From Candidatus Poribacteria bacterium (GTDB taxonomy: Bacteria > Poribacteria > WGA-4E > PCPOR2b), in the NCBI GenBank assembly GCA_965208675.1, contig OZ242351.1, positions 4,608,001-4,672,000 on the forward strand: a stretch of DNA of 64,000 bases, written 5' to 3'. Of the stretch, positions 7,585-63,571 are shown in pieces; within the stretch, counting starts at the first letter, position 1; every line of letters starts with the position of its first letter. The notes under the pieces are model-generated. The model was not told where the DNA came from. It did no database searches and was given only the letters and a program-made list of their open reading frames with translations. Both the position numbers and the translations under genes were made by a program.

Positions 7585-7641
7585 CGCGGGGCAAGCGGAA
7601 AACTATCGCCTTCCCTATTCGGTCAGTTGATCCCCGCCTAC
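7585..7641 (-). repeat. GTAGGCGGG-family palindrome carrying one 35-bp GATCAA element (7598-7632)
   Basis: Minus strand reads gtaggcggg[gatcaactgaccgaatagggaaggcgatagttttc]cgcttgccccgc. Compare the empty form gtaggcggggcatctagccccgc at 63392. Confidence 0.85.
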
Positions 7642-7764
7642 GATGGGTGGAGGATTTACCGCCTACAATGGGGGCATCGGCTGAACATACGGGTCGACAC
7701 CCAACGAATCCGGAAAATTCAATCTGAAGTGCGTAAGCCCCAAAAATTATGAAGGATTAGAAGC

Positions 7765-8814
7765 GTGCCCATAAAGTCACATGAAGAATTGAGTGAAATC
7801 GGATCGCGGGTTCTGAGGTCTGCAGGTGCGACCGACGACGTTGCCGACAGAGTTGCGCGCCACCTTGTCGGATCCAACTTAGTGGGTCTGGATTCCCACG
7901 GAATCATCCGTCTAGCTGACTATGCCACCTGGCTACAGGAGGGGAAGATTGCCGGCGACAACCGTATTGAAGTCGTCAGGGACAAAGCCGCAACTTGTTT
8001 AATTGACGCCCACATGTCGTTCGGGCAGGTCGCGGCATCGCAATCTGCGGACATCGCCGTACAAAAAGCGCAGGTGTACGGAATCGGCTTGGTTTCGGTG
8101 AAGAATGCTTCCCACATCGGCCGACTGGGAGAATATGTTGAGGATATAGCGTCGCAGGGATTTATCGGTTTTCTCTGTTGCAACGCGGAAGGAGCAGGTC
8201 AACTCGTCGCTCCATGGGGCGGCAAGGCAGCGCGAATCGGTACGAATCCAATGGCGTGGGGGATTCCCAGCGGCAGGGCGTCAGGAGGCATGGTATTGGA
8301 CATGGCTACGAGCATCGTTCCCGAAGGCAAGATTCGCGTCATGATGCGGAGAGAGGAAGAGATTCCGCATGGCTGGGTGCTTGACTCTCAAGGGCAATCG
8401 ACGTCGAACCCGGCAGACCTTTATGGGCCGCCTGTCGGGGCGATTCTTCCGTTCGGGGAACACAAGGGTTACGGATTGATGTTGGCGATAGAGGCACTTT
8501 CAGGTGTACTCAGCGGCGGCGGGCATGCTCGACCGGCAGTAGCGGAGGCTTGGTTTACGCATGGCAGCACGTTTACAATGATGGCGATCGAAGTTGAATC
8601 ATTTCGTTCGCTAACCGAGTTTACGGACGATGTCGATGAAATGTTAAAACACATGAAAAGTTCACCGCCGACCACTCCCGATGCTGAAGTGCTCGTTCCT
8701 TACGAGATAGAGTCCAGAGAGAAATCGGTAAGGTTAGCAAACGGGATAACGATAGAGGACTCCACTTGGGATAGGGTGGTTCAGATTGCTAGCGAGCTTG
8801 AGATTTCCATTTAA
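7765..8814 (+). CDS. Ldh_2 family (malate/L-lactate/hydroxycarboxylate) dehydrogenase
   Basis: GLDSHGIIRL, HIGRLGEY, GTNPMAWGIP, LDMATS, HKGYGL. Confidence 0.9.
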   Translation: MPIKSHEELSEIGSRVLRSAGATDDVADRVARHLVGSNLVGLDSHGIIRLADYATWLQEGKIAGDNRIEVVRDKAATCLIDAHMSFGQVAASQSADIAVQKAQVYGIGLVSVKNASHIGRLGEYVEDIASQGFIGFLCCNAEGAGQLVAPWGGKAARIGTNPMAWGIPSGRASGGMVLDMATSIVPEGKIRVMMRREEEIPHGWVLDSQGQSTSNPADLYGPPVGAILPFGEHKGYGLMLAIEALSGVLSGGGHARPAVAEAWFTHGSTFTMMAIEVESFRSLTEFTDDVDEMLKHMKSSPPTTPDAEVLVPYEIESREKSVRLANGITIEDSTWDRVVQIASELEISI

Positions 8815-8971
8815 TATCGACTCTACTTACCACTTCCCGGCAGTGACTGTGCCATCGAAAAATAGACGTGAGAATGCAGGCGAAGAACAACGTATCCTTC
8901 CAGTGGACGGTTCTCGCCAATAGCCTATCCGCTAATCTCGTACAGTCGCCGATGCCGTAATCAGCAATTGG

Positions 8972-9787: not shown

Positions 9788-10057
9788 AACGTGATGCCTC
9801 GTTATTTTTCCGACCCAATCTCTGAATCAGAGATGCTTAGTCCGACTATACGGATTGAACCCCGTCCATTCGAAGGTCCATACCAGATTAAAATTGATAC
9901 TTGAATTTATAGTGGGAAAGAGGCGTATCGTTTCGCACTCGGTCTGAATTTCAAAGACACCATGAATCGGCGAATGATTGAAAAATTAAATTAATGCTAT
10001 GCTATCCCCTCCGATAACATGAAGCTGTCGGTAATTGAATGTCCGTGAACGCTAGTT

Positions 10058-10864: not shown

Positions 10865-10987
10865 TGAAATTCTCCTTTGCTCTTTAGTTTAAAGCCTCCG
10901 CGCTAAAGCTTACCAACCGTAACTGAAGTCCATAAGGTGCCTTCGTTTTTTCGATTATCTTAAAAAGGTGATAGGCATATTGTCCCA

Positions 10988-13771: not shown

Positions 13772-14313
13772 GTCGTTTCGTCCTTTTCACAGTGGCATAA
13801 CGTATGCCGAAGCACACAAAAATCAGATTCAATTTTCCAATTGATAAGCACCGAACAATCAAACGGAATGAGTTGAGTTTATTTTACGACAACATAACAT
13901 AGATATCAAGTGGTGAATATAACGATGCGGACTGCCTCATAAACGATTCGCAAGCTTGGTGCAAGACGCCGTAAAATTGCCATACAGACGCAAAGATACT
14001 GTAACATTGAGGTAATGCAATGCCCCGTAACGGAGGGTACTAAGTGCTGTAGTCATTTTTGGTCAAAAATGGCTGGGGATGCAATGGCCGACAGGAACCG
14101 AATCCACATTCGGCATGATAGGCTGAAAGGAATGGTGAGCGCCATAAAGGGCGTGTGGCGGACGATTTTTATAGCAGTGCCTAGTTGTATGTGTCGGCGC
14201 TACCTGTGCAATTTTTAATCTTTGAATGTTATCCGGAATCCTAGTTTGACATAACCGCTGTGCTTCGGTGTGACCATTTTTCTCGTGCATGCTGAATTTT
14301 TCCCATTTTCTTC

Positions 14314-14351: not shown

Positions 14352-14375
14352 TTGTACGACAAAGGAGGTGATATC

Positions 14376-14756: not shown

Positions 14757-14766
14757 GAGGGCATTG

Positions 14767-18715: not shown

Positions 18716-20986
18716 ATGAAGAAAGCAATTGTTTTCAAGCTTAGCTTACTGTTGGTTAGCGCTCTATGTCAAACGAATAGTTTCGCCCAAGATTCTCCGC
18801 AATGGGGGCTGCCCGAGCGTGTTAAAGCGCGCCTCGGAAAAGGTGGGGTATATGAAATACAGTATTCGCCCGACGGCACTCGACTTGCGGTTGCCAGCAC
18901 TATCGGTATTTGGCTCTACGATACGGCGACCCATCAAGAGGTCGCCCTGCTCACCGGGCATACGGGTCCGGTGGAAAGCGTTGCGTACAGTCCCGATGGG
19001 CGCACCATCGCTAGTGTGAGTGGAGACTATACCATTCGTCTGTGGGATGCCGAAACCGGAAAACACCTGCGAACGCTCAAGGGGAATGTGTCTGCGGTCG
19101 CTGGCATAGCGTACAGTCCCGATGGGCGCACCATCGCTAGTGGGGGTGGAGACCGTACCATCCGTCTGTGGGACGCTGAAACAGGAGAACACCTGCGAAC
19201 ACTCAAGGGGAATATTGAGGATGGTTTGTCTGTTTGGGCCACTAGCATAGCGTACAGTCCCGATGGACGCACAATCGCCAGCGGGACATTTGATCCCGAC
19301 TTTGATAATGATATTCTCAACAATGCAAATTTCATCCGTCTGTGGGACGCCGAAACGGGAGAATACCTGCGAACACTTAAGGGACATAAGGACCGGGTCG
19401 AGAGTGTTGTGTTCAGTCCTGATGGTCACACCCTCGCCAGTGGGAGTTGGGACAATACCATCCGTCTGTGGAACGCCCATACAGGAAGACGCCAACGAAC
19501 GCTAAGGGGGCATACGTCTAAGATCAGAAGTGTTACGTACAGTCCCGATGGACGTACCATCGCCAGCGGGAGTTTTAACGGTACCATCCGTCTGTGGAAC
19601 GCCCATACAGAAAGACACCAACGAACGCTCGTCGGGCATACATTTGGGGTCATTAGCGTAGCGTTTAGTCCCGATGGACGCAGTATCGCTAGTGGAAGTT
19701 CGGACAATACCATCCGTCTGTGGAACGCCCATACGGGAAAACACCTACGGACGCTCAAGGGGTATACATCTAGGGTCGAAAGCGTAGCGTTCAGTCCCGA
19801 TGGCGACACCCTCGCCAGTGGGGGTTGGGATGCTACCGTCCGACTTTGGGACACCGATACCGGAAACCACTTGCGAACACTCGTCGGGCATACATTTGCG
19901 GTCAATAGCGTAGCGTTTAGTCCCGATGGCAGCACTGTCGCTAGTGCGAGTAATGACAATACCATCCGTCTGTGGAACGCCCATACAGGAAGACGCCAAC
20001 GAACGCTAAGGGGGCATACATCTGGGGTCGAGAGCGTAGCGTTCAGTCCCGATGGCGACACCCTCGCCAGTGGGAGCCGGGACACTACCGTCCGTCTGTG
20101 GGACATCCATAGGGGAAGACATCTGCGAACGCTCAAGGGGCATACACTTGCGGTCAATAGCGTAGCGTACAGTCCCGATGGCGGTACCATTGCTAGCGGG
20201 AGTGAGGATAAGACCATCTGTCTATGGGACGCTGATGCCGGAAAACGCCTGCGAACGTTCAAGGGACATACTTCGGTCAATAGCGTAGTGTTCAGTCTCG
20301 ATGGACGCACCATCGCTAGTGGAGGTCTGAGTCTGGACGCCAACATCCCGTCTAACATGCGTCTGTGGGACGTCGATACGGGAGAACAACTGCAAACGCG
20401 CCAGGCACACGCTAATGTGGTCAATAGCGTAGCGTTCAGTCCCAATGGACGCATCGCAAGTGGGGGTTGGAGGAGAATCATCCGATTGTGGGACGCCGAT
20501 ACGGTATTACGCCTGCAAACGCTCAACGGGCATACGGGTAGCGTCCAGAGCGTAGCGTTCAGTCCCGATGATGGCCGTATCCTCGCTAGTGGGAGTGCGG
20601 ACGGTACCGTGTTGCTGTGGGAACTTTGGTCGTCGACAGCATTTGGGGTGAAACCGTTGGCAAGACACTTGACGACGACACTGGGCAACATCAAACGGAC
20701 AGCGTTGCTACAAAATTATCCGAATCCGTTCAACCCTGAAACTTGGATACCGTATCAGTTGGCAGACGATGCGCACGTGACCTTGCGCATCTATGACCAG
20801 AGCGGCCGTATCGTTCGCACACTCGACGTTGGACCTCAAAAATCGGGCGTCTATCAAGACGTAGCTAACGCCGTGTATTGGGACGGTCGGAATCAAGACG
20901 GAGAACGTGTCACAAGCGGCACCTATTTCTACCAATTCCGTGCGGGCGATTACACCGCGTTACGGCAGATGGTAATACTCAAATAG
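18716..20986 (+). CDS. Secreted WD40-repeat protein (14 repeats) with C-terminal FlgD-Ig/T9SS-like domain
   Basis: Signal peptide; 14 GH...SPDG..IASGS.D.TIRLWD repeats with about 126-bp DNA period; LLQNYPNPFNPETWIPYQL...WDGRN. Confidence 0.92.
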   Translation: MKKAIVFKLSLLLVSALCQTNSFAQDSPQWGLPERVKARLGKGGVYEIQYSPDGTRLAVASTIGIWLYDTATHQEVALLTGHTGPVESVAYSPDGRTIASVSGDYTIRLWDAETGKHLRTLKGNVSAVAGIAYSPDGRTIASGGGDRTIRLWDAETGEHLRTLKGNIEDGLSVWATSIAYSPDGRTIASGTFDPDFDNDILNNANFIRLWDAETGEYLRTLKGHKDRVESVVFSPDGHTLASGSWDNTIRLWNAHTGRRQRTLRGHTSKIRSVTYSPDGRTIASGSFNGTIRLWNAHTERHQRTLVGHTFGVISVAFSPDGRSIASGSSDNTIRLWNAHTGKHLRTLKGYTSRVESVAFSPDGDTLASGGWDATVRLWDTDTGNHLRTLVGHTFAVNSVAFSPDGSTVASASNDNTIRLWNAHTGRRQRTLRGHTSGVESVAFSPDGDTLASGSRDTTVRLWDIHRGRHLRTLKGHTLAVNSVAYSPDGGTIASGSEDKTICLWDADAGKRLRTFKGHTSVNSVVFSLDGRTIASGGLSLDANIPSNMRLWDVDTGEQLQTRQAHANVVNSVAFSPNGRIASGGWRRIIRLWDADTVLRLQTLNGHTGSVQSVAFSPDDGRILASGSADGTVLLWELWSSTAFGVKPLARHLTTTLGNIKRTALLQNYPNPFNPETWIPYQLADDAHVTLRIYDQSGRIVRTLDVGPQKSGVYQDVANAVYWDGRNQDGERVTSGTYFYQFRAGDYTALRQMVILK

Positions 20987-39660: not shown

Positions 39661-39726
39661 CGGGATTTACTGTCGCCTTCGTTGTTTGCTCAGTTGATTC
39701 TATTCAGTCGCTTGATCCCCGCCTAC
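39661..39726 (-). repeat. GTAGGCGGG-family palindrome carrying two nested GATCAA elements
   Basis: Minus strand gtaggcggg-gatcaagcgactgaatag-aatcaactgagcaaacaacgaaggcgacagt-aaatcccg. Confidence 0.75.
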
Positions 39727-42520: not shown

Positions 42521-42578
42521 ATGCGGGGCAAGATGCCCCGCATTCGATGGATTTAACGGGGTAAGATGTCCCGCCTAC
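42521..42578. repeat. Two empty GTAGGCGGG-family palindromes
   Basis: atgcggggcaagatgccccgcat and acggggtaagatgtcccgcctac; related copies at 60092-60116 and 63392-63416. Confidence 0.75.
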
Positions 42579-47176: not shown

Positions 47177-47213
47177 AACCCCCTCTAACTCCCCCTTGGT
47201 AAGGGGGAGGATT
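47177..47213. repeat. CCCCCTTG..AAGGGGG palindromic repeat (third family)
   Basis: aaccccctctaactcccccttggtaagggggaggatt; reverse-orientation relatives at 63343-63379 (intact) and 51489-51512 (interrupted). Confidence 0.7.
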
Positions 47214-51247: not shown

Positions 51248-51396
51248 AAAGTGCCCTTCTACGCTCAACGCGGTCAGTTTTCCAAGAGTATAACACAATT
51301 GAGATGAAAAGCGAGTCTTATCTGTTCTGAGAACATGAGCTAAAGTTGCGTATCACTTTTGCCACAGGTCATAGCATCATTGCCACAATTGTTTTC

Positions 51397-51770
51397 GTAG
51401 GTTGGGTTGAGCGATCAACTGACCGAATAGCGAATGATCAAGCGACTGAATAAGGAGTGCGATAGTTTTCCTATGGTCTTCTAAAACAAAATCCTCCCCC
51501 TTGACAAGGTGGGATCAACTGACCGATTAGGGAGGGATCAAGCGACTGAATAAGGAGTGCGATAGTTTTTTTTATAGTCTTAACTAGTCTTCACCGGCTC
51601 TTGTAGGTTGGGTTGAGCGACCAATCGCAAAAAACGTCACGGTGCTCGTACGTCGTGCAAATTCCGCTGCGATGACGTTGAAGAAAATGCAGAGCGTAAC
51701 CCAACGCTTTTTCGCTATTTCGACGTGGTTCGTTTATGGTAATGGCTTGAATTATTTCGAAAAGCGTTGC
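51397..51770 (+). repeat. Composite repeat cluster: GTAGGTTGGG REP-like + nested GATCAA elements (51413, 51436, 51513, 51536) + 103-bp long REP (51603-51705)
   Basis: Direct comparison with copies at 53091-53493, 57667-57926, 58692-59100, 59964-60367 and 63248-63571. Confidence 0.88.
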
Positions 51771-51969
51771 CTTGGAGCCCCAGCGGGGATCTTCAAGTGT
51801 ATGCAGCAAATCGCAGGCGACCCGAATTTAAGGACGTATTTTAACAATTTTTATTGAAACTTGTTGCAAAATATAGGGTATAATTTTACAACGGGTCGGA
51901 CCGTTGCGGCAATGTCTGTTAGATTCAACCGCGAGCAGGTGCCGCCGCAAAATAATACGGGAAGAATTT

Positions 51970-51985
51970 TGGCATATCACTTGCT
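51970..51985 (+). promoter_or_regulatory. Sigma54 (-24/-12) promoter
   Basis: TGGCAT-ATCAC-TTGCT with correct GG/GC spacing; upstream dyad GTTGCAAAAT...ATTTTACAAC at 51863-51892. Confidence 0.7.
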
Positions 51986-52099
51986 ATAACTATTTTGACC
52001 AGATTTCATTCACTTTCTCATTACGCATTACTCATTACTCATGACTCATTAATTTTTAAGTTACTGTTGATTGACCCAGAGTAAAAGGAGGAACCTACA

Positions 52100-52900
52100 A
52101 TGAAATTTATCGGGTTACAAGTCGTCAGTCTTTGTCTCGCCGTTTTCCTGTTTTTAGTATTCATTGCATCCGGCTATGCAAACGTCGGAGCGATTCAAAT
52201 TGAGCTGTCGGGATACGTCACTAATGACGATGCGCGGCAGATTCGGCGATTGTTAAAGCCGTGGGCGGATCCGGAAAATGTGGTGTTTAAACCTGCGTAC
52301 GACAAAAAGCAACGTAAACGCTATTTCTCAACAGTGGTCGAAATTACACCGCGTTGGGGCAAGAACAGTTATAGCGAGAGTCACACTTTTGATATTTACA
52401 ATATCATGCGGCAACTGAACGACCAGCGTTTCCGAGGGAGCCAGATTGGGCCGCGTCCGAGGGTTGCCAAAACCGAAGCTACGGTGTCGGGAGATCTCAT
52501 CACCTATCATGGATGGTCACGCAGCCATATTCGAGAAGTCCCGAATTGGCGGCGTTGGCGTGAACACACATCAGAGATCGGTCATGCGTTGTATACGGAC
52601 CGTGCAAATGAGAAGGTTGTATTTAGCCGTAACGACAAGTTCGATGAGTTAAGGCGTGAAGTGAGTGAAGGCGTAGATGAAGGTAAACGCGATCCGGCTG
52701 TTGAGGTCGAGGGCAAGATTGTGGGATTCGACGGCCCCTACCCGGTGATGTCCATCCGCAAATTCCGTGTGGACTACAAGATCGAAATGCAATCCGGAGA
52801 CAAGGGAAGAAAACAGAAGGACGAGTCCTACGACTATTTGGAGAAATCCCTACCGGAATCGGGTGAAACCACCCAAGATGAATCGGAAAACGGTAAATAA
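52100..52900 (+). CDS. Secreted hypothetical protein
   Basis: AAGGAGG SD, signal peptide, 266 aa; no family recognised. Confidence 0.8.
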   Translation: MKFIGLQVVSLCLAVFLFLVFIASGYANVGAIQIELSGYVTNDDARQIRRLLKPWADPENVVFKPAYDKKQRKRYFSTVVEITPRWGKNSYSESHTFDIYNIMRQLNDQRFRGSQIGPRPRVAKTEATVSGDLITYHGWSRSHIREVPNWRRWREHTSEIGHALYTDRANEKVVFSRNDKFDELRREVSEGVDEGKRDPAVEVEGKIVGFDGPYPVMSIRKFRVDYKIEMQSGDKGRKQKDESYDYLEKSLPESGETTQDESENGK

Positions 52901-52909
52901 CAAGTTCTT

Positions 52910-53493
52910 GTAGGATCAACTGAGCGAATAGCGAAGGCGATAGTCTTTTCTTGCATTCCCTGAACCCCAACTCTTCTCGGCGTCAGTCTTCTTCGTAACT
53001 CATCGCCGTTTTGACCTTCCGCCTAACGAATGACTTGTGAACCCAATATAACGCCATGGTTTTCAGAGAGCAAGTTGTCCACAAGTTCTTGTAGATTGGG
53101 TTAAGATCAACCGACCGAATAGGATCAACTGAGCGGATAGCGAATGATCAAGCGACTGAATACTGAATAAGGAGTGCGATAGTCTTAAATAGTCTTCACC
53201 AGTTTTTGTAGGTTGGGTTAAGCGACAAATCCCAAAAACGACACGGTGCTTGTGCCTCGTTCCAATAACATTACGATGACTATGAAATAACCCGTGAAGC
53301 GTAACCCAACGCTTTTGATACTTCCGGATATCCAAACCCGTCCCGTCCGAAACACTCCGCAACATATTCCGTAAAACCAATTGAACTTTTGTAGGGTAGG
53401 TTTAGTGACTAATCCCAAAAACGTCACTCCGCCCGAACGTCGTCCAATTTCCCTTGAAATGACCTTGGAAAAACTCTCCGATCGTAACCCTCC
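52910..53493 (+). repeat. Composite repeat cluster: GATCAA elements (52914; triple-nested 53105/53123/53146) and two 103-bp long REPs (53208-53310, 53391-53493)
   Basis: Same motifs as the 51397 cluster. Confidence 0.85.
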
Positions 53494-53680
53494 TCTTTTT
53501 ATAGCCTCCGACATCCACAGTCGTCCAGCTCGAATCTTCAAGAATTGCGATGAAAAATGAACCGTTGACAGTCGAATTGAGATCTGGTAATTTAAAATGT
53601 ACCACATCTATCGAACTTGTCAAGGTCGCCAACCAAGGCAACCTGCGTGACATAATTTCGCCCTTAAATTTCATTAATCG

Positions 53681-53706
53681 CTGTCCAAAGCGTGGGGGTA
53701 AGTTCA
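53681..53706 (+). mobile_element. Isolated IS3-type terminal inverted repeat
   Basis: ctgtccaaagcgtgggggtaagttCA; similar to 63685-63710 and to the IS3 end at 63736-63760; abuts the truncated transposase. Confidence 0.6.
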
Positions 53707-54283
53707 TTCCACTGGCTAGTGGTCAAATGGCTTATCTGGCACTATTGTTTGATGTTTTTACTCGAACCATAAGAGGCTGGGAGTTATCGAGAAACATGTC
53801 AGTTAACCTGCTGTCTGGAGCACTGAGAAAAGCATTAGCAAGACAGCATCGTCCGCAAATCCATCATTCAGACCGAGGTGGACAATACATTGCTGAGAAG
53901 TATTGCCAGCAATTGAGAGCGATAGCGTGCCGCATTTCCATGACGGACCGTGGCAAACCGTGGCAGAATCCATACGTAGAGAGTACGATTGGCAGAATCA
54001 AAGACGAATATATCGTTGACTCCGAGTATCAGAATTTCCACGACGCATACAACCAACTTAGTCCAGTATTGGATGTCGTGTATAATCAGAAAAGGCCTCA
54101 TTCAGCGCTAGGCTATCGGACACCTGCTGAATTCGAGGCAGCGTATAATGCGCACTAGAACACAAATCTGTATTTCATCTTGAATTAACAACGCAGCACT
54201 AACACAGTTATAGGTAAGTCCAAAACTTCAAAATACCTTCTTAACATCAACAATTTCGTGTCCAAACAATTGGGGTCACTGCC
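53707..54283 (+). pseudogene. 5'-truncated IS3-family transposase (rve core, stop 54158) with right end
   Basis: YLALLFDVFTRTIRGW, HHSDRGGQY, QNPYVES, YNQKRPHSALGYRTP; the first catalytic Asp region is missing; end-like gtgtccaaacaattggggtcactgc from 54258. Confidence 0.87.
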
Positions 54284-54300
54284 TTTTTCCACCTTTCAAA

Positions 54301-54579
54301 ATGAGCCCAAATGATGCCAATACGAATAAGATGATACATCAATTAGATCATATGAGGAATTTACGTGTTCGTAGCTACTATGGAAATTGGTCTATACTTT
54401 CAGTTTTTGACCGGATTATTCCAATAGCGGTTTGTACTGAAAAGCACACTAGTCTTCCCCAGGATGCTAATGTAATTTCAATCAGTCAATCACCAAACTA
54501 TGTTAAACCAGAACTTGAATCATGGTTCATTGCATGTCGAGAAGAGTTGGTACATAAATTTAGATTTTCGAAAAATTAG
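54301..54579 (+). other. Possible C-terminal remnant of a gene cut by the IS3 end
   Basis: AT-rich frame, open back to the IS end, stops just before the S9 peptidase; no family recognised. Confidence 0.35.
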
Positions 54580-54603
54580 ATGAAGTTGTTTAGGAGCATT
54601 CTA

Positions 54604-56799
54604 ATGAAGCAGGCTTTTGGCGTAGAGCATTTGATAAACCTCCAACGCACAACCAATTATGTACCGATGAATCTATCGCCAGACGGACGTTTACTAGCTG
54701 TGAGCGTACAGGGGATTCGTCGAAAAGCGGTAAATAAACGGGAAGACGGCTATGGAGTAGATGGTGTTCCCCAAGAAATGGACGGGAGCCGTATTTTCAT
54801 CGTAGATACCATTACTGGAAAAACTCAAGAACCATTTCCGGCTGGAAGCGTTAGTTGGGGCGGACAGTGGTCACCTGATGGAAGCCGTTTAGCGGCATAC
54901 GTTCGACACAACGGATTAGTCTGTTTAGGAGTTTGGTCTCCGGAGACCGATACTTTCCAGTTGTTTCAGCAAGCATTGATACGTACCCACTACGGATTTG
55001 AAATCCCTAGGTGGACCCCGGATAGCAGAAAGGTTATCGCGAAATTATGGCCTGCCAGTGGCGCGTTCAAACCGCCCGCACCAGACCAAGCAGCGCCTCC
55101 CAATCACCCTCTTCCCGTCAGCGTCTTCTCGTTTGATCCCACTCACGAGGTTGATACTCGCCCGACAGGTGCTTGGCTATATGATAGCACATGCTGCGAT
55201 CTTGGATGTATAGATGTAGTCACAGGTGAGGTAACAAGATTGGTCTGTGATTGGCCTGTGTGGAACTGGCGGGTTGCGCCCGATGGTAAAACAGTCGCCG
55301 CAATCAAGTTGGCAGAATATGATTCGCAATGCTACCGGATGACCTACGATTTGGTCGTTGTTCCACTAGACGGAACACCTCCGCGGACAATTGCTAGCAA
55401 GATATATCACGGCGGGGGTGGATTTAATTGGTCTCCTGACAGTCAGCTAATTGCCTTTACAATTGACGATGGGGACGACGACGGATCCCCCAAACAACTC
55501 TTTATTGTACCCGCAGATGGGTCTGAGAGTCCCAGAGCTCTAATAGACGAGATGACGATTAAGATGGATGATTATCTTGGACCGCACTGGAGTGAAAATA
55601 GTACTTCCATATTTTGTTTAACGCGAGATCAGGTATGGATATTCAATGCTGATGGGAGCAATACACGTCAAATGAAAGTCGTTCTTCCTGGGTGGCGCGT
55701 AGTATTCTGGATACACCCGCCGATGAGTCCACTATTGTGCACATCGCCGGACAGAGCACTATTCGCTGTTGTTCGAAATGACGTCTGGGACGAAGCCGTG
55801 GCTCGCGTTTCTCTTGAAAGTGGCGAAGGGACAATCCTGACAGAATTTGCCAAGTCGTGTTGGGATCCATTTCAGACCGAAGTTGCCCCAGATTTTTCGG
55901 CATGTTATGTTGCGGCTGAGGCGGCTGAACACCCCGCAGAAATTTGGCGCATCCCTCTTGATACGCACGTTCCAAACCGTCTCGTTTCACTCAATTCGGA
56001 TTTAGACGGCGTTTCGTTAGGTAAACCTCGCTTGATTGAGTGGCGGGCATTGGACAAAAAAATACACCGCGGTGCGTTGCTCTTGCCTCCGAACTATTGC
56101 GAAGGCGAACGTATTCCGGTGATTGTTCATGTATATCCCGGAAATTTCTCGAACTGTATTCACGACTTTGGCTTTGGTGGAGGCCACTACGATAATGCAC
56201 AATTGCTAGCGAGTCAAGGCTACGCTGTGCTGTGGCCAAATCTCCCGATTGACAGACGTAACATGCAGCAAATACCCAAATTCGTCTTACCCGCCGTAAA
56301 TCGGTTGATTGATTTAGGTATTGCCGATCCTGATCGAATTGGGCTGATGGGGCATAGCGACGGTGGGTATTGTGTGCTAGCACTTCTGGCGCAAACTGAT
56401 TGTTTTCGAGCGGCTGTCTGTTCTGCAGGTGTGGTCAATATTACGAGCGATTACGGTACATTGACTGACAAGGGTGATAGTTCCCATGGCTATGAACTTG
56501 GAAGCGAAATGGGCGGGACGTTATGGGAAAAACGGGATGCTTACATAGAGAATTCACCCTTGTTTTACTTCAACCGATCTAAAACACCGCTACTATTAGT
56601 TCAGGGGACAGAAGATATAGGGGGGACAGATCAATCCAAAGAGGCATTCGGTGCGTTGCGTCGCCTCGGGAACCCGGTAGAGTTGCGGTTATACCATGGC
56701 GAAGAACATTGGCCAGGTGCATGGTCTGAACATAATTTTCGGGACGTATGTCATCGCGTCCTGACCTGGTTTAACAAATATCTTGGAGAATCCCAGTGA
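54604..56799 (+). CDS. S9-family peptidase (beta-propeller + alpha/beta hydrolase)
   Basis: WSPDG/WTPDS propeller repeats, GHSDGG nucleophile, QGTED, GEEH; AGGAG SD before ATG 54604. Confidence 0.9.
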   Translation: MKQAFGVEHLINLQRTTNYVPMNLSPDGRLLAVSVQGIRRKAVNKREDGYGVDGVPQEMDGSRIFIVDTITGKTQEPFPAGSVSWGGQWSPDGSRLAAYVRHNGLVCLGVWSPETDTFQLFQQALIRTHYGFEIPRWTPDSRKVIAKLWPASGAFKPPAPDQAAPPNHPLPVSVFSFDPTHEVDTRPTGAWLYDSTCCDLGCIDVVTGEVTRLVCDWPVWNWRVAPDGKTVAAIKLAEYDSQCYRMTYDLVVVPLDGTPPRTIASKIYHGGGGFNWSPDSQLIAFTIDDGDDDGSPKQLFIVPADGSESPRALIDEMTIKMDDYLGPHWSENSTSIFCLTRDQVWIFNADGSNTRQMKVVLPGWRVVFWIHPPMSPLLCTSPDRALFAVVRNDVWDEAVARVSLESGEGTILTEFAKSCWDPFQTEVAPDFSACYVAAEAAEHPAEIWRIPLDTHVPNRLVSLNSDLDGVSLGKPRLIEWRALDKKIHRGALLLPPNYCEGERIPVIVHVYPGNFSNCIHDFGFGGGHYDNAQLLASQGYAVLWPNLPIDRRNMQQIPKFVLPAVNRLIDLGIADPDRIGLMGHSDGGYCVLALLAQTDCFRAAVCSAGVVNITSDYGTLTDKGDSSHGYELGSEMGGTLWEKRDAYIENSPLFYFNRSKTPLLLVQGTEDIGGTDQSKEAFGALRRLGNPVELRLYHGEEHWPGAWSEHNFRDVCHRVLTWFNKYLGESQ

Positions 56800-56872
56800 A
56801 GAACCTGTAGAAGCAATCATACTCTGAATTGATTCAATTAACTGTAGGCTGAGTGTTCAGGGCAATCGTAAA

Positions 56873-57282
56873 ATGATGCTACATACACTTGAAGCCAAAT
56901 TCGTCTTTACCGCAGGCAAAGTTCATTTGTCTGCAAACGATGTAGAATTCCTACCAATCGCTCTTACACAAAGTAGGATAAAATGGGAAGAAATAATGAC
57001 GAAGGCTTACTATCACGATTGCATGCCTATGCTATACTGGTGCCTGAAAGGAATACATAATGTTCGTTTTCCTAAACGTGTACTAACTGAACTAAAAAAA
57101 TCTTACTTATACGCATTTCTTAGAAATTCTCACTGCCTTAAACAAGTAGCGGACTTAAACAAGTAGCGGAAATGTTAAGAGTCTTTATGAAGAATCGGAT
57201 TCAGGTGCTTCTGTTAAATGGAATTGTGTTAGCCCAGTCGGTTTATCCAAATATAGCTCTGCGGACATTTCGGGATTTTGAA
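56873..57282 (+). pseudogene. Nucleotidyltransferase (NTP_transf_5-like), frameshifted and truncated
   Basis: IKWEEIM..AYYH.CMPMLY...P..VL.ELK..Y....RN; removing one copy of the 17-bp tandem duplication at 57137-57170 restores IQVLLLNGIVLAQSVYPNIALRTFRDFE. Confidence 0.7.
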
Positions 57283-57461
57283 TCCTCTCTGCCAAGTTAT
57301 CAGTTTGTCCTATATATAAGCGTATGTAACTTCTGTTGTCTTGCTTTGTGAAAGATATAAACCGCCCCGGCCGTTATGAACTCCGTGTCCGATTCATAAG
57401 CGGTAAAGTTGTTATTTTTTCCAGAAGCTCCTGTGAATGTTACTGTCTCAATTAGTACCAT
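57277..57461 (-). pseudogene. Small GIY-YIG-like protein, frameshifted and truncated
   Basis: MVLIETVTFTGASGK...GAVYIF, then with one base removed near 57352, TKQDNRSYIRLYIGQTDNLAERIQN. Confidence 0.65.
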
Positions 57462-57666
57462 ACCAAAATTTCCATTACCACGCCTTTTAACCTCCTTTGG
57501 AGGTAGGAGGGCGGCAGAAAAGACGTGCGGCAAAGCTCACAGCGCCACCCAGAACTGGGCAAAAACAGCATATCATGCTGAATCGTAGTTTTCAAGTTTC
57601 TCTATAATGTATCGTCCTTTTGTCAGGTGCAGGTACCACGACCTTGAAGGTACCACGAAAGTTCTT

Positions 57667-57926
57667 GTAGTTTGAGTTGAGCGATCAACTGCCTGAATAG
57701 GGAAGGATCAAGCGACTGAACAAGGAGTGCGATAGTTCTTCTTTAGTCTTCTGCGTAACCCAACGCTTTTCGAATAATTCACACGCATACTAAAGTCGTG
57801 ACTCATCGATAAAACCAAAAAGCGTTGGGTTACGCTCTGCATTTTTCTTCAACTTCATCGCTGCGGATTTTGGACGAAATACGAGCTCCGTGACGTTTTT
57901 GCGATTTGTCGCTCAACCCAACCTAC
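57667..57926. repeat. Inverted REP pair (REPIN-like): element-filled REP (+, 57667-57764) and 103-bp long REP (-, 57824-57926)
   Basis: gtag...gcgtaacccaacgctttt / aaaagcgttgggttacgc...ctac; nested GATCAA elements at 57683 and 57706. Confidence 0.88.
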
Positions 57927-58002
57927 AAACACTAGATTCCGCAATCCGGTAGGATTCGGTTGGGCGAATTGGAATGATAACGCTGCCGACAAGTCAGTTT
58001 TT

Positions 58003-58040
58003 AAAGGGAGCGGCACCGCACGGTGTCTCTCCCTTTTTTT
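58003..58040 (+). terminator. Intrinsic terminator with no adjacent upstream CDS
   Basis: AAAGGGAG-CGG-CACCG-CA-CGGTG-TCT-CTCCC-TTTTTTT. Confidence 0.7.
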
Positions 58041-58633
58041 ATGGGGGTAAAATCAGGAAGACAATGGAAAATGGGCGATTTACCGGTGAGCCGAGGTTGG
58101 TGGTTACCTTTTATAGAATTGCACCGGCCCGCTTGTGGTGCGGGTTCATTGAAATCGTGAGGTAACCAGAAGGTAACCAAGAAAAAAGATCTGTAAGTCT
58201 TTTGAGCGGATTGTTATGCTAATAATTCAGCATAGTTAATAGGGGAGATTTACGGCTTCCACAGGCAGTGAATCGGAAAGAATGTTATCGCAATCGAGAG
58301 GCGAAATGGGCGGGAATTTAGTCAGGAACTGATAAGGTGTCGATGTGAACGCAAAAATGTAAAAGGGCGTTGCGAAAATTCATCCTTGCTTGAAGGGCGG
58401 AGGATTGCCCTAAAAATTTTTGGCAACGAGAGATTTTCATCCTCGCGGCAGGTGGGTTGATTTTAACGGCAGAACAATGCGCAATCAAGCGAGCGAATAG
58501 TCAGGGCGATTGTCTTGCCAAGTGAAATTCTCGCGCCCTTGAGAAAGCTCACAATTGCCCGCAAGTCCGCAAATTCGCATAGCGTACGAGGTTGCTACCC
58601 TCATTCTTGACGTAACCATGCTGTGAAGCACTC

Positions 58634-59100
58634 GTGGGAAGGGCTTCCTAGCCCTGATTATCGGGACAGAGATGTCCCTCCCACAGTTTTTGTAGGTTGG
58701 GTTGAGCGATCAACTGACTGAATAGGGAAGGATCAACCGATCGAACAGGGAGGGCGATAGTCTTCACAAGTCTTCTGCGTAACCCAACGCTTTTAAAACC
58801 TCCGAAAAACCAAAAAATGTTACAATTTTATAAGAAACTGGTTTGCCTGAATTAGCGATTGTGGCGTACTGTAAACCCATACGTGGTGCGGGTTTTACGG
58901 CATAATTCTGTGAATCATCCCACCAAAAAACGAACTTTATGGATTTTATAACGAATTTCCCTCGGCTACGCTTCAATTATTCGCGCTGCTTTTGTAGGTT
59001 GGGTTTCGCTCCGTCATGGCGGTGTCGAATCCGCCTTCACTCACGAGAGCAGCGAGACCGATTTTGAAATTTGCTCAAAATACCGCTCTACCTAAACTAC
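58634..59100. repeat. Repeat cluster: GTGGGA palindrome pair, element-filled REP (58692-58788; elements 58708, 58731) and 103-bp long REP (-, 58998-59100)
   Basis: Motif comparison with the other clusters. Confidence 0.83.
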
Positions 59101-59151
59101 GATACGCTTTGAGGTGATTGCGGTTGCGGCAAGGGTGAATCGTCCGCACAT
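59092..59151 (-). pseudogene. N-terminal stub of an SOS response-associated peptidase (SRAP/YedK)
   Basis: GGAAGGAG SD then MCGRFTLAA, the signature SRAP N-terminus; frame ends after 19 aa inside the long REP. Confidence 0.65.
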
Positions 59152-59341
59152 CGTATATCTCCTTCCTTCAATGAGACCGAACTCAATGTAATCTGAATTA
59201 CTTCCAAAACTAGGTGCCGGCGGCGCCATTTGTCCAGTCTTAGAGCCATAATTCGAGGCTCGTTGCGTCAGTGCACGTACTCGCGCCTAAATTCTGCGTG
59301 GTCAAAAGACTATGAAGATATTATCGCATCCAGATAACGCA

Positions 59342-59371
59342 TTGACAATTTCGTTGAGAATCGTGTATAAA
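59342..59371 (+). promoter_or_regulatory. Sigma70-type promoter
   Basis: TTGACA-18 bp-TATAAA upstream of the 59459 ORF. Confidence 0.55.
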
Positions 59372-59458
59372 TACCTTGTATTAGCTATATGCTAGTTTCA
59401 AGGTAGGTTATGTAGAATAACATGCGGCTAAATCCGCACACATTGGAAGGAACCCTTA

Positions 59459-59821
59459 ATGAGCAAAAATCCGCAAACCCGCCTTCAGGTGAGTATGCTC
59501 CAAGAGATTGAGTCGAATTTTGACCATCCTCACGCGGTCGATACCTTTGTAGCGACGATTGACAGAATTGGAATTGAAGTTGTGCGAGATCTTGAAATCA
59601 ATGTAGTCGATGCGCCGTATGTGAAAGATGTTTTGCCACTTATACAGACGCGCGCGGAATTGGAGGACATTGAAGAACGATACCGAAAGTATTACAAACC
59701 CCACGAAGATGGCACGTATTGGATACACACAAACACAAGAACTGAAAAGAAATGCGAGCTTTTAGAGGAGATAGCCCGTCAAGCAGGAATTGAAATTTGG
59801 GTAAAGATAGTCCCAAAGTAA
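59459..59821 (+). CDS. Hypothetical protein, 120 aa
   Basis: Own promoter and GGAAGGA SD-like sequence; pattern DTFV..I..IG.E.V..L...YWIHTN..T..K..LLEEIA...G. Confidence 0.75.
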   Translation: MSKNPQTRLQVSMLQEIESNFDHPHAVDTFVATIDRIGIEVVRDLEINVVDAPYVKDVLPLIQTRAELEDIEERYRKYYKPHEDGTYWIHTNTRTEKKCELLEEIARQAGIEIWVKIVPK

Positions 59822-59963
59822 TGGTTCCGATGCAGTATGGTACCATTGTCTTTTCTGCAAGTTTAACCTATAACCAACTCCGCAATTGATTGCCCTTAGG
59901 GTACTGATTAGATTGCCACCGCACTGCAGATTCCATACACATAAACAAATGGGGTCAGTTTTT

Positions 59964-60367
59964 GTAGGTTGGGTTAATCGGGTGATGCCATCACCGTTAC
60001 GCCCCCATGTATCGCCCCAATACATTTGGCATGACGATACAATATAGACAGAGTGTAACTCAACGATCAACTGCCCAATCAAGGTCTAAGAGTAGACGGG
60101 ACATCTTGCCCCGCATTGTGAAGAAGCGTCAGATTACACCGCCTTATCGCACAATCACGTAAGCAGCTCTTGTAGGTTGGGTAGAGCGATTAATTGAGCG
60201 ATGATCGAAGGTGATAGTCTTCCGCGAAACCCAACGCTTTTTAGGCGTTCCGGACCTTTCAAAACCGTTGGGTTTCGCTCCATGTATTCTGCTGAGGCGA
60301 TTGCAGGGCATTCGGAGTGGTTATCTTCGCAAGAACGACTTTGGAATTGTCGCTCTACCCAACCTAC
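59964..60367. repeat. Repeat cluster: 101-bp long REP (59964-60064), degenerate element (60065), GTAGACGGG palindrome, inverted REP pair 60172-60235 (element 60188-60222) / 60267-60367
   Basis: Motif comparison with the other clusters. Confidence 0.83.
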
Positions 60368-60787
60368 GGATATTCAGAATCGGAACATTTGGGACCATGG
60401 CGAGATCCCTTTTTGATACTCATCAAGCAGATTAACCAGTCCAAGCGGGGTCTGCGAGGAGGGGGTAAAGGTGTGCGTGAGTACCGCCTCACCGAATCGA
60501 ACCTTGCAGTTACCCAAAACTAGACGGTCGAACAAAATTCATTTCCCACTAGAAATTCGTTGTTATTGTCGCTATAATATCATACTGGTACATGATTTGA
60601 ATTTTGCCGAATAACAAAGATTTTGAACCTTGAATCTTTTCCGTATTGCCTCAATCCGTGTGCCAGAATTTCCGAATTCAAAGTGTTCGTACTCACATTA
60701 GAAGCGCCGGGCGTAAGCGAAATAATTCCGGTTAAGTTTTACGGTTTCAACTGCAAGACATCGTTCGTTGGATAGAAGAAGTAAAGT

Positions 60788-61684
60788 ATGGCAGAAAAGA
60801 AAGGCGCACGTGTTAGATCCTTGAGCAGTTTTATGAATTGGGCATTACAATTCACGGATGGACAATATCTTTTTCGAGGCGTCTCAAACGATACTTACAA
60901 AATAGAAGCATCTGCATACCGACGATTGCCAAAAGAAGACAGACGAGACCCGGTGAAACTCCTCAAGATTACTCAAGAGTTAATAGACAGCGCGAGGTCT
61001 TTAGGACATGATCAAAACGAAGGCCAACCCCGTTCAGAACTAGAGTTACTCGCCCACCTTCAGCACTACGGTGCGGCTACTTGCCTAATAGACTTCACGC
61101 GCGATGTAATGGTCGCACTCTGGATGGCATGTCAACAGAGCACAACAGAAAAAGACAAAAAAATGAAAAAGGCTAAAGGTAAAGTGTTTGCGGTGCGAAG
61201 CGACAATCTTTCCCAGTTCAGAGTTGTTACTGACGAACAACAACGTTGTGCGAAAATTAGGGATTTTTTTGAGCAAGAAAACAAAAGGTATCCGCTGTAT
61301 CAATGGCAACCCAATTACCAGAATAATCGCATTATAGCTCAGGAGTCTGGCTTTATATTTGGTGGTGCAGATGTTCCGGTAGAAGCAGAGTGCACCATTT
61401 TTCCAAGTTCTAAGCAAAAACTTTTAACAGATCTATATCGAATATCGGGAATCTACGAGGCAAGCATTTATCCTGACTTTGACGGTTTTGTCAGCCAACA
61501 TGCTTGGAATAAGCCGTATCGCGCGCCGGATGCATTAAACAAATTGCAAGAAGGAATGCGAACGGTCCAAGGAGAAAAACAGGATGAGAGTACCCCGTCC
61601 CCTGATGTAGGTGCGTTGGGTAAGCCCCTGACAGCTGAATCTACCTCGGTCGAAAGTTCGAAGCCAGGAGGAGACAAAAAATGA
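60788..61684 (+). CDS. FRG domain-containing protein
   Basis: YLFRGVS, LAHLQHYGAATCLIDFT, ALWMAC, NNRIIAQESGF, SIYPDFDG. Confidence 0.9.
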   Translation: MAEKKGARVRSLSSFMNWALQFTDGQYLFRGVSNDTYKIEASAYRRLPKEDRRDPVKLLKITQELIDSARSLGHDQNEGQPRSELELLAHLQHYGAATCLIDFTRDVMVALWMACQQSTTEKDKKMKKAKGKVFAVRSDNLSQFRVVTDEQQRCAKIRDFFEQENKRYPLYQWQPNYQNNRIIAQESGFIFGGADVPVEAECTIFPSSKQKLLTDLYRISGIYEASIYPDFDGFVSQHAWNKPYRAPDALNKLQEGMRTVQGEKQDESTPSPDVGALGKPLTAESTSVESSKPGGDKK

Positions 61685-63177
61685 ATTCGCAAAGTATAGC
61701 CCATTTCGATGAAGCGATCGCTCTTTTAAAACCGGATGATCCCACTCTCGTTACTGCGCACCATAACCGCGGCTTTGCTTACTTCCGACATGGCGATTAT
61801 GATCGTGCTCTTGAAGACTACACCAAAGCGCTTGAACTTAGTCCCAATAACGCGGAGATCTATTTTGACCGTGGCATCGCTCATTTCCATAACCGCGAAT
61901 TTGACCTTGCGATTGATGATTACACCGAAGCGCTAAAACAAAAGCCGGACTATGCAGAGGTCTATCATAATCGAGGAGTTGCTCATCGTATCAATCGCAA
62001 CGACGATGAAGCTCTTAAGGACTTTAATAAGACGATTGAACTTAAACCATTTTATCCCACCCCTCACAACGGTCGTGGTCTTTTATTCTATCAACAAGGC
62101 GATTTGGACCATGCGATCGAGGACTTTACCAATGCGATTCAGCTTGATCCTAATTTTTTTGAGGCTTATTGCAATCGCGGCGTTGCCTACGATGCTAAAG
62201 GTGCGCACAATCAGGCGTTCAGGGACTATTCGAAAGCAATACATCTTAATTCCAAATATGCCGAGGCTTATTACAATCGCGGCCTCGCTTATGCCGCTAT
62301 GAAGGACTATGATTCTGCTGTTCTGGACTTTAATAAAGCGATAGAACTACAACCTAAGTTTGCCGAAGGATATAACAGTAGGGCGGTTGTCTACGACCAC
62401 AAAGACCAGACTGACAGGGCAATTCAAGACTATACGAAAGCCATAGAATTAAAACCTAACTTTTACGAGGCATATACCAATCGCGGAATTTCTTTCAATA
62501 AAAATCATGAGAGAGATAAGGCAATTCAAGACCATAGCACGGCAATTGAACTTAATGACAATTATGCTCCCGCGTATGCAAATCGTGGAGTGGCGTACTA
62601 TGATAAAGAGCAATACGATCGCGCAATTAAAGACTACAACAAAGCAATTGAACTTGATTCAAAACTCTCTCAAGCATATAACAATCGTGGTAATGCGTAC
62701 CGTAGAATAGGGAAGCATGATCTTGCTTTCTCGGACTATAGCAAGGCAATTGAACTAAAGCCGGATTATGCCGAGCCATACAACAATCGTGGAAATGCCT
62801 ACATTGATAAGGGCAAATATGAATGTGCTATAAAAAACTATACAATGGCGATAGATATCGATCCAAAACTTGCCAAGCCGTATAGCAATCGTGGCGTTGC
62901 GTACTCACACATAGGGGAAGTGAAACTTGCCATTGAAGACTATAACAAAGCAATCCAGCTGGACCCCGATGATGGAGACGCCTACTACAACCGCGCTGAG
63001 GTCTGGTTACGTCAGAAGGAATGGGACCAATCCAGAGTAGATTTGAAGGCCGCTAGAGCCAAGGGTGTAGACCTTATCGCCGCATTTCATAACGATGTCG
63101 AATGCGTCCCTGACTTCGAGGAGAAAAATGGTGTAAAACTCCCCGATGACATCGTGGATATGCTTACGAACGGCTGA
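61681..63177 (+). CDS. Tetratricopeptide-repeat protein (13 TPRs)
   Basis: 34-aa AY.NRG.AY....A..DY.KAI.L.P repeats; ATGA overlap with the FRG gene; GGAGGAG SD. Confidence 0.92.
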   Translation: MNSQSIAHFDEAIALLKPDDPTLVTAHHNRGFAYFRHGDYDRALEDYTKALELSPNNAEIYFDRGIAHFHNREFDLAIDDYTEALKQKPDYAEVYHNRGVAHRINRNDDEALKDFNKTIELKPFYPTPHNGRGLLFYQQGDLDHAIEDFTNAIQLDPNFFEAYCNRGVAYDAKGAHNQAFRDYSKAIHLNSKYAEAYYNRGLAYAAMKDYDSAVLDFNKAIELQPKFAEGYNSRAVVYDHKDQTDRAIQDYTKAIELKPNFYEAYTNRGISFNKNHERDKAIQDHSTAIELNDNYAPAYANRGVAYYDKEQYDRAIKDYNKAIELDSKLSQAYNNRGNAYRRIGKHDLAFSDYSKAIELKPDYAEPYNNRGNAYIDKGKYECAIKNYTMAIDIDPKLAKPYSNRGVAYSHIGEVKLAIEDYNKAIQLDPDDGDAYYNRAEVWLRQKEWDQSRVDLKAARAKGVDLIAAFHNDVECVPDFEEKNGVKLPDDIVDMLTNG

Positions 63178-63247
63178 ACTGTCATGTATTGTCCGCGAAA
63201 TTTGATTAGTCAGTTCGAATTAACATCCCCGCCCCAACATAGTTTCT

Positions 63248-63571
63248 GTAGGTTGGATTGAGCGGCCAACCGACCGAATAGGATCAACTGAGCGGTAGCG
63301 TAGGCGATAGTTTTCTGGCTGCCGTGATAGTCTTCTCTCGTAAAATCCTCCCCCTTGACAAGAGGGAGCTAGAGCGGGTCAATTTATTGTTGTAGGCGGG
63401 GCATCTAGCCCCGCATTTATGATGAAGTTTTTGTAGTCTGGGTTGAGCGGACATTTCCGAAAAAGTTACGGCACTCTTACCTCGTCCAAATTCCTTTACG
63501 AAAACTATGAAATAACCAGTGGAGCGATCAACCTACCGAACAGGGAGGGCAATAGTCTTCCTTCAGTCTTC
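63248..63571 (+). repeat. Repeat cluster containing all three palindrome families plus GATCAA elements (63264, 63282, 63526)
   Basis: gtaggttgg at 63248; cccccttgacaag at about 63350; gtaggcgggg at 63392; long REP 63433-63525 interrupted by an element. Confidence 0.85.

Follow-up and report, generated by a model that had tools for sequence, protein, structure and literature searches.

The window analysed here is a 64,000-nt stretch (G000:C1:4608001-4672000) of G000, a Candidatus Poribacteria genome of one contig (4,892,038 bp, 49% G+C, 96% complete by markers), and our subject is a very small repeat, hereafter the element, that recurs in it inside other repeats and inside copies of itself. 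The element is 30-35 nt long and consists of GATCAA, six bases, GAATA, six bases, GCGATAG and a TCTTC tail, with bases 7-12 pairing with bases 18-23 in a 6+6 hairpin. A genome-wide nhmmer search (E up to 10) with a profile built from 169 copies yielded 415 matches in G000 (223 on the plus and 192 on the minus strand), 20 of which lie in the window and cover every place cited in an earlier note on this DNA that had been made from the sequence alone. The commonest model spans were 1-35 (94 matches), 1-34 (84), 1-24 (41) and 1-30 (23), with 1-19 and 1-18 together contributing 15.

Within the window, filled and empty hosts coexist, as the earlier note had held. On the minus strand, a GTAGGCGGG..GCCCCGC hairpin resembling repetitive extragenic palindromes (REPs) carries one full element (7586..7641, element at 7598-7632), a second GTAGGCGGG host carries a two-level nest (39669..39726, with the outer head, bases 1-18, at 39700-39717 and the inner element at 39669-39698), and a GTAGGCGGG-type hairpin stands empty at approximately 42557..42578. 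The other hosts and copies located here all lie on the plus strand, beginning with 63346..63414, which holds a further empty hairpin of this type (GTAGGCGGGGCATCTAGCCCCGC, 63392-63414) and an empty CCTCCCCCTTGACAAGAGGGAG hairpin (about 63346-63369). The latter is one of the CCCCCTTG..CAAGG hairpins, another of which (CTCCCCCTTGGTAAGGGGGAG, 47189..47209) is also empty and lies a few bases beyond the 47177 first given for it, while the CCTCCCCCTTGACAAGGTGG hairpin at 51494..51592 was correctly described as interrupted at 51513, by a nest made up of an outer head (51513-51535), an inner element (51536-51569) and two tail remnants.

Directly after the GTAG-tagged arm GTAGGTTGGGT..GAGC, elements were found at 51413, 57683, 58708, 60188 and 63264 (the last a degenerate head); a sixth place assigned to this arm, 63526, proved instead to follow ..GGAGC at the far end of a long-form copy. 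These hosts comprise a GTAGGTTGGGTTGAGC arm (51397..51481) with an outer head at 51413-51435 (bases 1-23), an inner copy at 51436-51470 and the outer tail remnant CTATGGTCTTC; a GTAGTTTGAGTTGAGC..GCGTAACCCAAC hairpin (57667..57765) with a two-level nest (57683-57705, 57706-57739, tail to 57752); a GTAGGTTGGGTTGAGC..GCGTAACCCAAC hairpin (58692..58789) with another (58708-58730, 58731-58765, then ACA and AGTCTTC); a short GTAGGTTGGGTAGAGC..CGCGAAACCCAAC hairpin (60172..60236) with a degenerate element in its loop (60188-60222); and a GTAGGTTGGATTGAGC arm (63244..63335) in which a degenerate outer head (63264-63281, to base 18) and an inner copy (63282-63315) are followed by the outer remainder TGGCTGCCGTGATAGTCTTC. 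The element at 63526..63571 is full, ends a long-form GTAG element and is followed by CTTC and a second AGTCTTC, and a long-form copy of about 111 nt, GTAGGTTGGGT...GCGTAACCCAAC, lacks the 35-nt element (51603..51711). Outside these hosts lie a single element directly after ..CTTGTAG (52914..52948), a three-level nest (53105..53197) with heads at 53105-53122 (bases 1-18) and 53123-53145 (bases 1-23), an inner copy at 53146-53186 and the tail AAATAGTCTTC, and a degenerate single element (58484..58516, model 2-34) that is kept in place in the congeneric genome G002. Self-nesting thus takes place at the two points reported, after base 18 (53123, 63282, 39699) and after base 23 (51436, 51536, 53146, 57706, 58731).

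Evaluating the hairpin across the 169 G000 copies, we found G9/A10 and G20/A21 to be invariant, giving a tandem G.A/A.G between two base pairs on either side, closed by the GAATA loop (bases 7-23), whereas the four canonical pairs covary: 11-19 occurs as GC (78), CG (66) and AT (10), 8-22 as TA (81) and CG (75), 7-23 as CG (135), GT (14) and GC (8), and 12-18 as CG (134), TG (21) and TA (12). Covariation was retested in 86 sequences, consisting of 6 window copies and 80 listed loci of other Poribacteria records, the latter selected by a pattern that fixed base 18 as G and left the other seven paired positions as N. Here 96.5% of 288 cells were paired, as compared with 66.2% in shuffles (none of 500 shuffles reaching 96.5%) and 23-58% in slid controls, and cells changed on both sides numbered 105 against 26. 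At least 39 of the 288 cells are G-T wobbles on the GATC...-sense strand (26 UG at 12-18 and 13 GU at 7-23), and because the complementary strand would have A-C mismatches in their place, it is the GATC...-sense strand that is constrained. The hairpin is real and strand-specific. In one predicted fold, bases 2-4 also pair with bases 26-28 as an outer ATC/GAT helix; these bases do not vary and hence carry no covariation signal. Stem subtypes among 207 copies were led by CTGAGC/GCGAAG (45), CCGACC/GGGAGG (24), CTGACC/GGGAAG (15), CCGAGT/ACGAGG (11) and GCGAAC/GTGAGT (9), and the commonest 33-mer of the element occurred 23 times.

Genome counts were made with a pattern carrying N at the stem positions, which was run on 61 genomes (G000 and Poribacteria relatives) and matched 212 near-full copies in G000, while its reversed control matched none in any of the 61; the pattern is not a product of chance. 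Placement relative to genes was judged on crude open reading frames (ORFs) that cover 83% of the genome, and 206 of 226 strong matches fell outside them. The 20 nominally inside were in small ORFs (125-227 aa), at or near the ends of longer ORFs (one end lying at most ~75 nt away, or the presumed 5' end 143-172 nt away) or in partial overlap with an ORF, and none of them was a clean gene disruption that could serve as an empty-site control. The cumulative GC skew, being weak and irregular, gave no origin or terminus on which to base an analysis of replication-strand bias. Doublets are rare, with 8 tail-to-tail pairs (gaps of 8-16 nt) and 1 head-to-head pair as compared with 77 same-strand junctions of at most 3 nt. 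The eight tail-to-tail pairs resemble the doublets of REPINs (hairpins formed by two REPs) and lie at 185144, 3102673, 3159997, 3213407, 3574390, 3744888 and two further positions in G000.

The hosts proved more varied than the three families first proposed: GTAG-tagged REP-like hairpins and other small palindromes are indeed entered, and the contexts number at least six. Among the 262 arrays with a defined 5' end (out of 332), 52 begin after the GTAGGTTGGGT..AGC arm and 42 after ..AACCCAAC, the 3' foot of the same hairpin family, all on the same strand as the host; 25 lie inside CC..AAGGRG hairpins, 17 directly after GTAG, 9 after GTAGGCGGG and 4 after CCCTGATAAGG, and 1 is opposite to its GTAG host. 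The other 112 comprise further repeat families, decayed outer heads and three with AAAAGCGTTGG at the junction that by eye appear to be opposite, such that at least 150 of the 262 arrays lie in recognised hairpin families. With GTAG-tagged REP-like hosts, co-orientation amounts to about 120 same-strand cases against 1-4 opposite ones, a strong bias in place of the invariable co-orientation claimed earlier. In G000 the GTAGGTTGGGT host takes three forms, short-loop (38 copies), element-sized (24) and long (~111 nt, 206). The long form, GTAGGTTGGGT...GCGAAACCCAACGCTTTT, has a poorly conserved interior and two arms in common with the short-loop and element-filled forms, and its copies in the window lie at 51603-51711, 53203-53316, 53386-53499 and 63428-63525.

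At the junctions themselves, the sharp 5' side and ragged 3' side that had been noticed in the window were borne out genome-wide. Every host shows an exact 5' junction at G1, whereas on the 3' side 2-6 target bases are lost and 1-4 gained; in the short GTAG hairpin, for example, an 8-nt loop (e.g., CAACGGCG) is cut to ..CG after the element plus 1-2 bases. Upstream of 207 full copies, A occupies position -3 in 71% of cases, a purine stands at -2 in 97%, and -1 holds G or C in 89%; these percentages overstate the evidence, as copies of a repeat family are not independent. The three bases after base 35 are alike in nested and single copies (TCC, TCT, CTT and ACC head both lists), so the apparent filler may belong to the element or to donor flank. 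Most copies show no target duplication, and to that extent the earlier denial of such duplications holds, although several have a duplicated GTAGGTTGGGT..AGC arm at their flanks. The ends of the element are not inverted repeats, and because there are neither terminal inverted repeats nor regular target duplications, DDE transposition is unlikely, in agreement with the non-DDE insertion suggested before.

As for nesting, the 332 arrays include 65 with two heads and 9 with three, the model ends of truncated heads cluster at 23/24 (52 matches) and 18/19 (15 matches), and the inner and outer copies are mostly of different stem subtypes. Tandem duplication cannot make the head-head-tail-tail order of these arrays. 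We considered a type IIS restriction cut as the cause of nesting, given that GTCTTC (element bases 30-35) reads GAAGAC on the other strand and that a BbsI-type specificity (2/6) would place the sense-strand cut precisely at the 23|24 step, and rejected it as a general cause, since a lineage with AGATCC tails, which lacks that site, nests at the same point; we judge the fit of such a cut to 23|24 a coincidence.

That second lineage emerged from the 61 genomes, whose relatives of G000 were gathered with a window protein and carry record titles of the form "MAG: Candidatus Poribacteria bacterium" (MAG, metagenome-assembled genome). The pattern occurs in all 4 genomes of the genus of G000 (g1, about 200 matches each) and in all 10 genomes of g11, a genus in another family (340-860 each), with 14 matches in G036, 1-2 in three genomes and none in 43. 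In a collection scan, all 80 loci among the matches listed came from records titled Candidatus Poribacteria; as far as searched, the element appears restricted to two Poribacteria lineages. Loop, tandem G.A and adjoining bases are invariant across both, and the tail is lineage-specific, TCTTC in G000 and AGATCC in g11. The g11 elements still follow GTAGGCGGG, GTAGGGTGG and CTTGTAG with the same exact 5' junction, and they nest after GAATA(G) and after base 23 with 2-3 nt lost and ~1 nt added. The GTAGGTTGGGT..AGC host arm is present in 55 of the 61 genomes, including element-free ones with 100-144 copies, as expected if the element is a later occupant. Both tail types are also met within g1: TCTTC/TTTTC in G000 and G002, and, at the site orthologous to 7598-7632, an AGATC type in the others (AGATCC in G003, AGATCT in G001).

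We interpret the element as a structured, non-coding, non-autonomous and polar single-strand insertion module akin to the small dispersed repeats (SDRs) of cyanobacteria, a reading that we consider to have about an even chance of being correct. Under it, the GATC...-sense strand would be handled as a folded single strand, and its exact 5' end (G1) would be joined to a same-strand 3'-OH after a purine-rich A-R-(G/C) step, in GTAG-tagged REP-like hairpins, in other small palindromes or, behind base 18 or base 23, in the hairpin of the element itself. The 3' side would then be closed imprecisely, usually with 2-6 target bases lost and 1-4 pyrimidine-rich bases added, and sometimes with donor flank carried along or a host arm duplicated. 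Such polarity fits HUH-type (Y1/RAYT-like, RAYT being the REP-associated tyrosine transposase) strand transfer or one-ended copying and does not fit DDE or retro-transposition.

Several results, in this paragraph and in those on orthologous sites and enzymes below, weigh against the insertion module. Nearest-neighbour folding gave the hairpin no significant stability (-0.4 to -2.1 kcal/mol, z-scores of +0.3 to +0.9), which argues for a protein partner. The target motif, as said, looks stronger in percentages than it is. HUH transfers are normally precise at both ends, so the ragged 3' junction needs an extra assumption under that chemistry. Finally, the stacked 3' tails pointed out in the window turned out to be a minority pattern: a recognisable outer tail is kept within 5 nt in only 16 of 45 two-head arrays, where it restarts after 1-5 filler bases at base 25 (1 array), 27 (5), 28 (3), 29 (6) or 30 (1) and never at base 24.

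The strand on which the hairpin is constrained could instead be explained through RNA, if the transcribed sense strand folds (hence the G-U pairs) and is reverse-transcribed into nicked hairpins. Wobbles are tolerated on the sense strand only, the 3' ends of the element are T-rich and variable, and in tandem-gene intergenic regions 85 strong matches are co-oriented with the flanking genes as compared with 36 opposed, all of which would suit this route. Against it, RVT_1, the sole reverse transcriptase profile searched, had no match in G000, a single-contig genome at the completeness given above, and target-primed reverse transcription would leave an exact RNA 3' end and a ragged 5' end, the opposite of what the folding strand shows here. 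We consider an RNA intermediate very improbable, and the reverse transcriptase-like step floated in the earlier note is accordingly not sustained.

Returning to the insertion module, we evaluated its turnover by comparing 1.27 Mb of G002 with G000 (88-96% identical in syntenic blocks), with element clusters mapped by their flanks. Of the resulting 70 comparisons (38 in one direction and 32 in the reverse, as overlapping sets), none revealed gain or loss of the element only, such that the empty-versus-filled orthologous alleles anticipated beforehand were not found. Length was the same with the element in both genomes in 25 comparisons and the same with a match in only one in 6; differences of 4-24 nt were seen in 5, of 25-45 nt in 4 (no clean element indel among them) and of more than 45 nt in 30. 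Readable differences, both between G000 and G002 and in sequencing run X7, are blocks of 50-430 bp, including composites of 100-260 bp, and several of them either have direct copies of the GTAGGTTGGGT..AGCG arm at their borders or arose as tandem repeats of a unit. A run X7 contig, for example, joins 51394 to 51601 and so lacks a 206-bp block (51395-51600: arm, nest, hairpin, nest), which the GTAG arm flanks as a direct repeat. A joint from 60188 to 60224, which skips exactly 35 bases, was rejected as an orthologous empty allele on account of the 19-22 letters on its shorter side, and probably derives from paralogous empty hairpins. Between G001 and G003, only kilobase-scale indels were seen around arrays. 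Since the split from G002, a 92-96% relative, copies have mostly been stable or turned over within larger composite blocks.

These block-wise differences, like the lack of element-only indels, favour a mosaic explanation, in which the element is a module of composites like bacterial interspersed mosaic elements (BIMEs), without mobility of its own. Composites would spread, shrink and exchange modules by recombination (homologous or microhomology-mediated), by gene conversion and by template switching at hairpins, and the apparent nests would result. Recurrent composites that carry one element subtype each point the same way, namely CCCGATTGTCGAG + element + AGATGCCTCTCC (5 copies), CGTAGGG + element + TATCAGG.. 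(3 copies) and element + ATCCGAACCGCC... The mosaic has difficulty with the order of heads and tails in the nests, which tandem duplication is unable to produce, with the usual difference in stem subtype between inner and outer copies, with a 5' junction base shared by at least six unrelated hosts and by two lineages whose tails differ, and with a host family that abounds in genomes without any element. It would also need replacement by a discrete unit where the subtype differs at the same host position in orthologous sites. At the GTAGGCGGG site near 7600, G002, G003 and G001 all have host and element in the corresponding intergenic region, with stem CTGACC/GGGAAG and tail TTTTC in G000 and G002, and stem CCGAGC/GCGAGG and an AGATC-type tail in G003 and G001 (AGATCC and AGATCT, respectively, the former being the type that dominates the g11 lineage). 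At a second orthologous site two base pairs differ between G000 and G002 beside a nearly identical neighbouring element, and at 4001950 an element nest with flank stands in place of the long-form host interior, exactly after GAGC. In these three orthologous cases a discrete unit has come in as a replacement. In addition, the tail-to-tail pair at 3744863, whose GATC ends are exact, occupies a position at which G002 carries another kind of GTAG hairpin element. On this balance we regard the mosaic as possible and rather doubt it.

Orthologous loci also bear on a motif that serves the host, e.g., a protein-binding or RNA-processing site under selection that spreads passively with its carriers. 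Over 13 orthologous loci of equal length, conservation is slightly higher in the element than in its flanks (93.3% identical, 360/386, versus 89.9%, 982/1092), its loop, tandem G.A and adjoining bases do not vary between the two lineages, and it is intergenic and biased towards gene orientation. A core function is hard to square with its patchy presence in two lineages only, function would leave self-nesting and decayed outer copies unexplained, and no Rfam family matched the element in a search of 51000-64000 at E up to 1. We accordingly give a host-serving motif little credence.

For the insertion module, the enzyme is the next concern. G000 encodes four Y1/HUH genes, one of IS200 type and two reaching the REP-associated transposase cut-off, and it has no match to TnpB-type (PF07282) or IS110-type (PF01548) profiles. 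None of the four has the element or either of the two GTAG hosts within 600 bp, and across the 61 genomes each of the four lacks a homologue in some element-rich genomes and has one in element-free genomes; the IS200-type gene is absent from G002 and G003, each of which has about 200 copies of the element. With neither proximity nor co-occurrence, we rejected the four Y1/RAYT genes as mobilisers, and no RAYT/TnpA candidate of the sort that the earlier note would have tested proved to be linked to the element. A precedent for the first joining step is given by Messing et al. (2012, PMC3479197), who propose that a monomeric RAYT covalently bound on a 5' end could join any single-stranded 3'-OH.

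A more specific version of insertion would make the element a minimal hyperparasite of the REP/RAYT system: a Y1/HUH-type or other nuclease would cut exactly before GATC, one-ended transfer would take place to nicks in GTAG REP hairpins and in the element's own stem, and repair would close the 3' side. We think this unlikely. If true, the element would be about the smallest self-defined mobile DNA, with an exact-5'/repaired-3' chemistry not described for bacterial elements.

Among known systems, the SDRs of Nostoc punctiforme and relatives (SDR1-8) are the closest kind, being likewise very small, dispersed, high in copy number and without an encoded protein. They too have a conserved hairpin with compensatory changes, comparable to the 96.5% versus 66% pairing of the element. 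SDRs are reportedly 21-27 nt long and nested inside copies of themselves (a description owed to Elhai et al. in 2008), as the element lies inside other repeats and itself with two or three heads in 74 of 332 arrays, although at 30-35 nt it is longer, in a comparison made by description only. The element differs further in belonging to another phylum and in having GTAG REP-like hairpins as hosts, not HIP1 or heptamer arrays; PMC5861425 states that outside the Nostocaceae no SDR-like repeat was found. With REPs, REPINs and BIMEs, as portrayed in excerpts of PMC3116915, PMC3479197 and PMC3733652, the element shares short intergenic hairpins in hundreds of copies, mosaic clusters and Y1/RAYT-like genes in the genome. 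Strand-specific single-strand recognition is also plausible for it, and its hosts carry the 5' GTAG tag. The element itself lacks a GTAG/CGTC tag at the hairpin foot on both strands (it starts GATCAA and ends ..GATAGTCTTC), rarely forms doublets and has no cognate RAYT nearby or tracking it; its behaviour is that of a REP occupant, not of a REP.

Palindromic repeats as preferred sites for other repeats have been met before, and insertion sequences (ISs) are said to target REPs (Tobes and Pareja, 2006). In those cases the newcomer is a full IS or a GTAG REP dimer, whereas here it is an untagged 35-nt unit that enters itself and leaves an asymmetric junction. The nearest printed parallel for targeting is the GTAG REPs inserted within other palindromes that Di Nocera et al. 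(2013, PMC3733652) describe, together with empty target palindromes beside filled ones in Thermomicrobium roseum. IS200/IS605 elements, going by passages of PMC3479197, resemble the element in strand polarity and hairpin recognition, and may do so in the lack of target duplication (mostly absent in the element) and in insertion 3' of a short motif, for which a derived miniature element would call for a fixed tetra- or pentanucleotide. They differ from it in that the element has no encoded or linked transposase, a single hairpin, a weak A-R-S motif and a routinely imprecise 3' junction. Miniature inverted-repeat transposable elements of the DDE type have the terminal inverted repeats that the element lacks, and its junctions lose target bases in place of a fixed-length duplication; retroelements are set apart by the missing RVT_1 match. 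In rolling-circle elements (IS91, Helitrons), the 5' end is exact and the 3' end is sometimes read through. The literature matches listed included no paper on such repeats in Poribacteria.

How very short bacterial repeats spread has been open since REPs and cyanobacterial SDRs were described, and for SDR-type units we know of no mechanism at all. The element offers the ingredients for finding an enzyme by phylogenetic profiling and oligonucleotide assays, namely an exact 5' end, a covarying hairpin with an invariant tandem G.A, a preference for one strand, a short motif at the target, two lineages that differ in their tails, and sister genomes with the hosts and without the element. The nests are moreover places where Poribacteria intergenic regions differ between strains, and as such affect assembly, strain typing and possibly gene expression.

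Further composites and arrays were observed around these sites. The nest at 39669..39726 is also present in G002, with two extra tandem host-plus-element units of ~95 bp, and just downstream of the hairpin orthologous to 47189..47209 G002 carries a 232-bp element-bearing composite. A composite of ..CCGTAACCGTAGGG, element (tail AGTGTT) and TATCAGGTCA..CCCGCC.. is inserted at the G002 sites orthologous to window positions 8827 and 47228, and three similar CCGTAACCGTAGGG/TATCAGGTCA composites lie around 1069119, 1905222 and 2245394 in G000. At the sites orthologous to 8827 and 42541, G002 has tandem arrays of 8-9 units of ~100 bp, each with a GCGGGGCAAGATGCCCCGCCTAC hairpin, where G000 has no or two such hairpins. 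The element is also repeatedly followed, whatever lies upstream, by a conserved stretch of ~26 nt that is ATCCGAACCGCCTCCAACAAACCGAA-like (3129161, 3138463, 2677918, 4004825, 4001950), which could be a composite unit or carried donor flank. Apart from the element, the window contains in-frame coding repeat arrays at 18970-20622 and 61796-62911, made up of ~126-nt WD40-like units and 102-nt tetratricopeptide repeat (TPR)-like units, and "eukaryote-like" repeat proteins of these kinds are typical of sponge symbionts.

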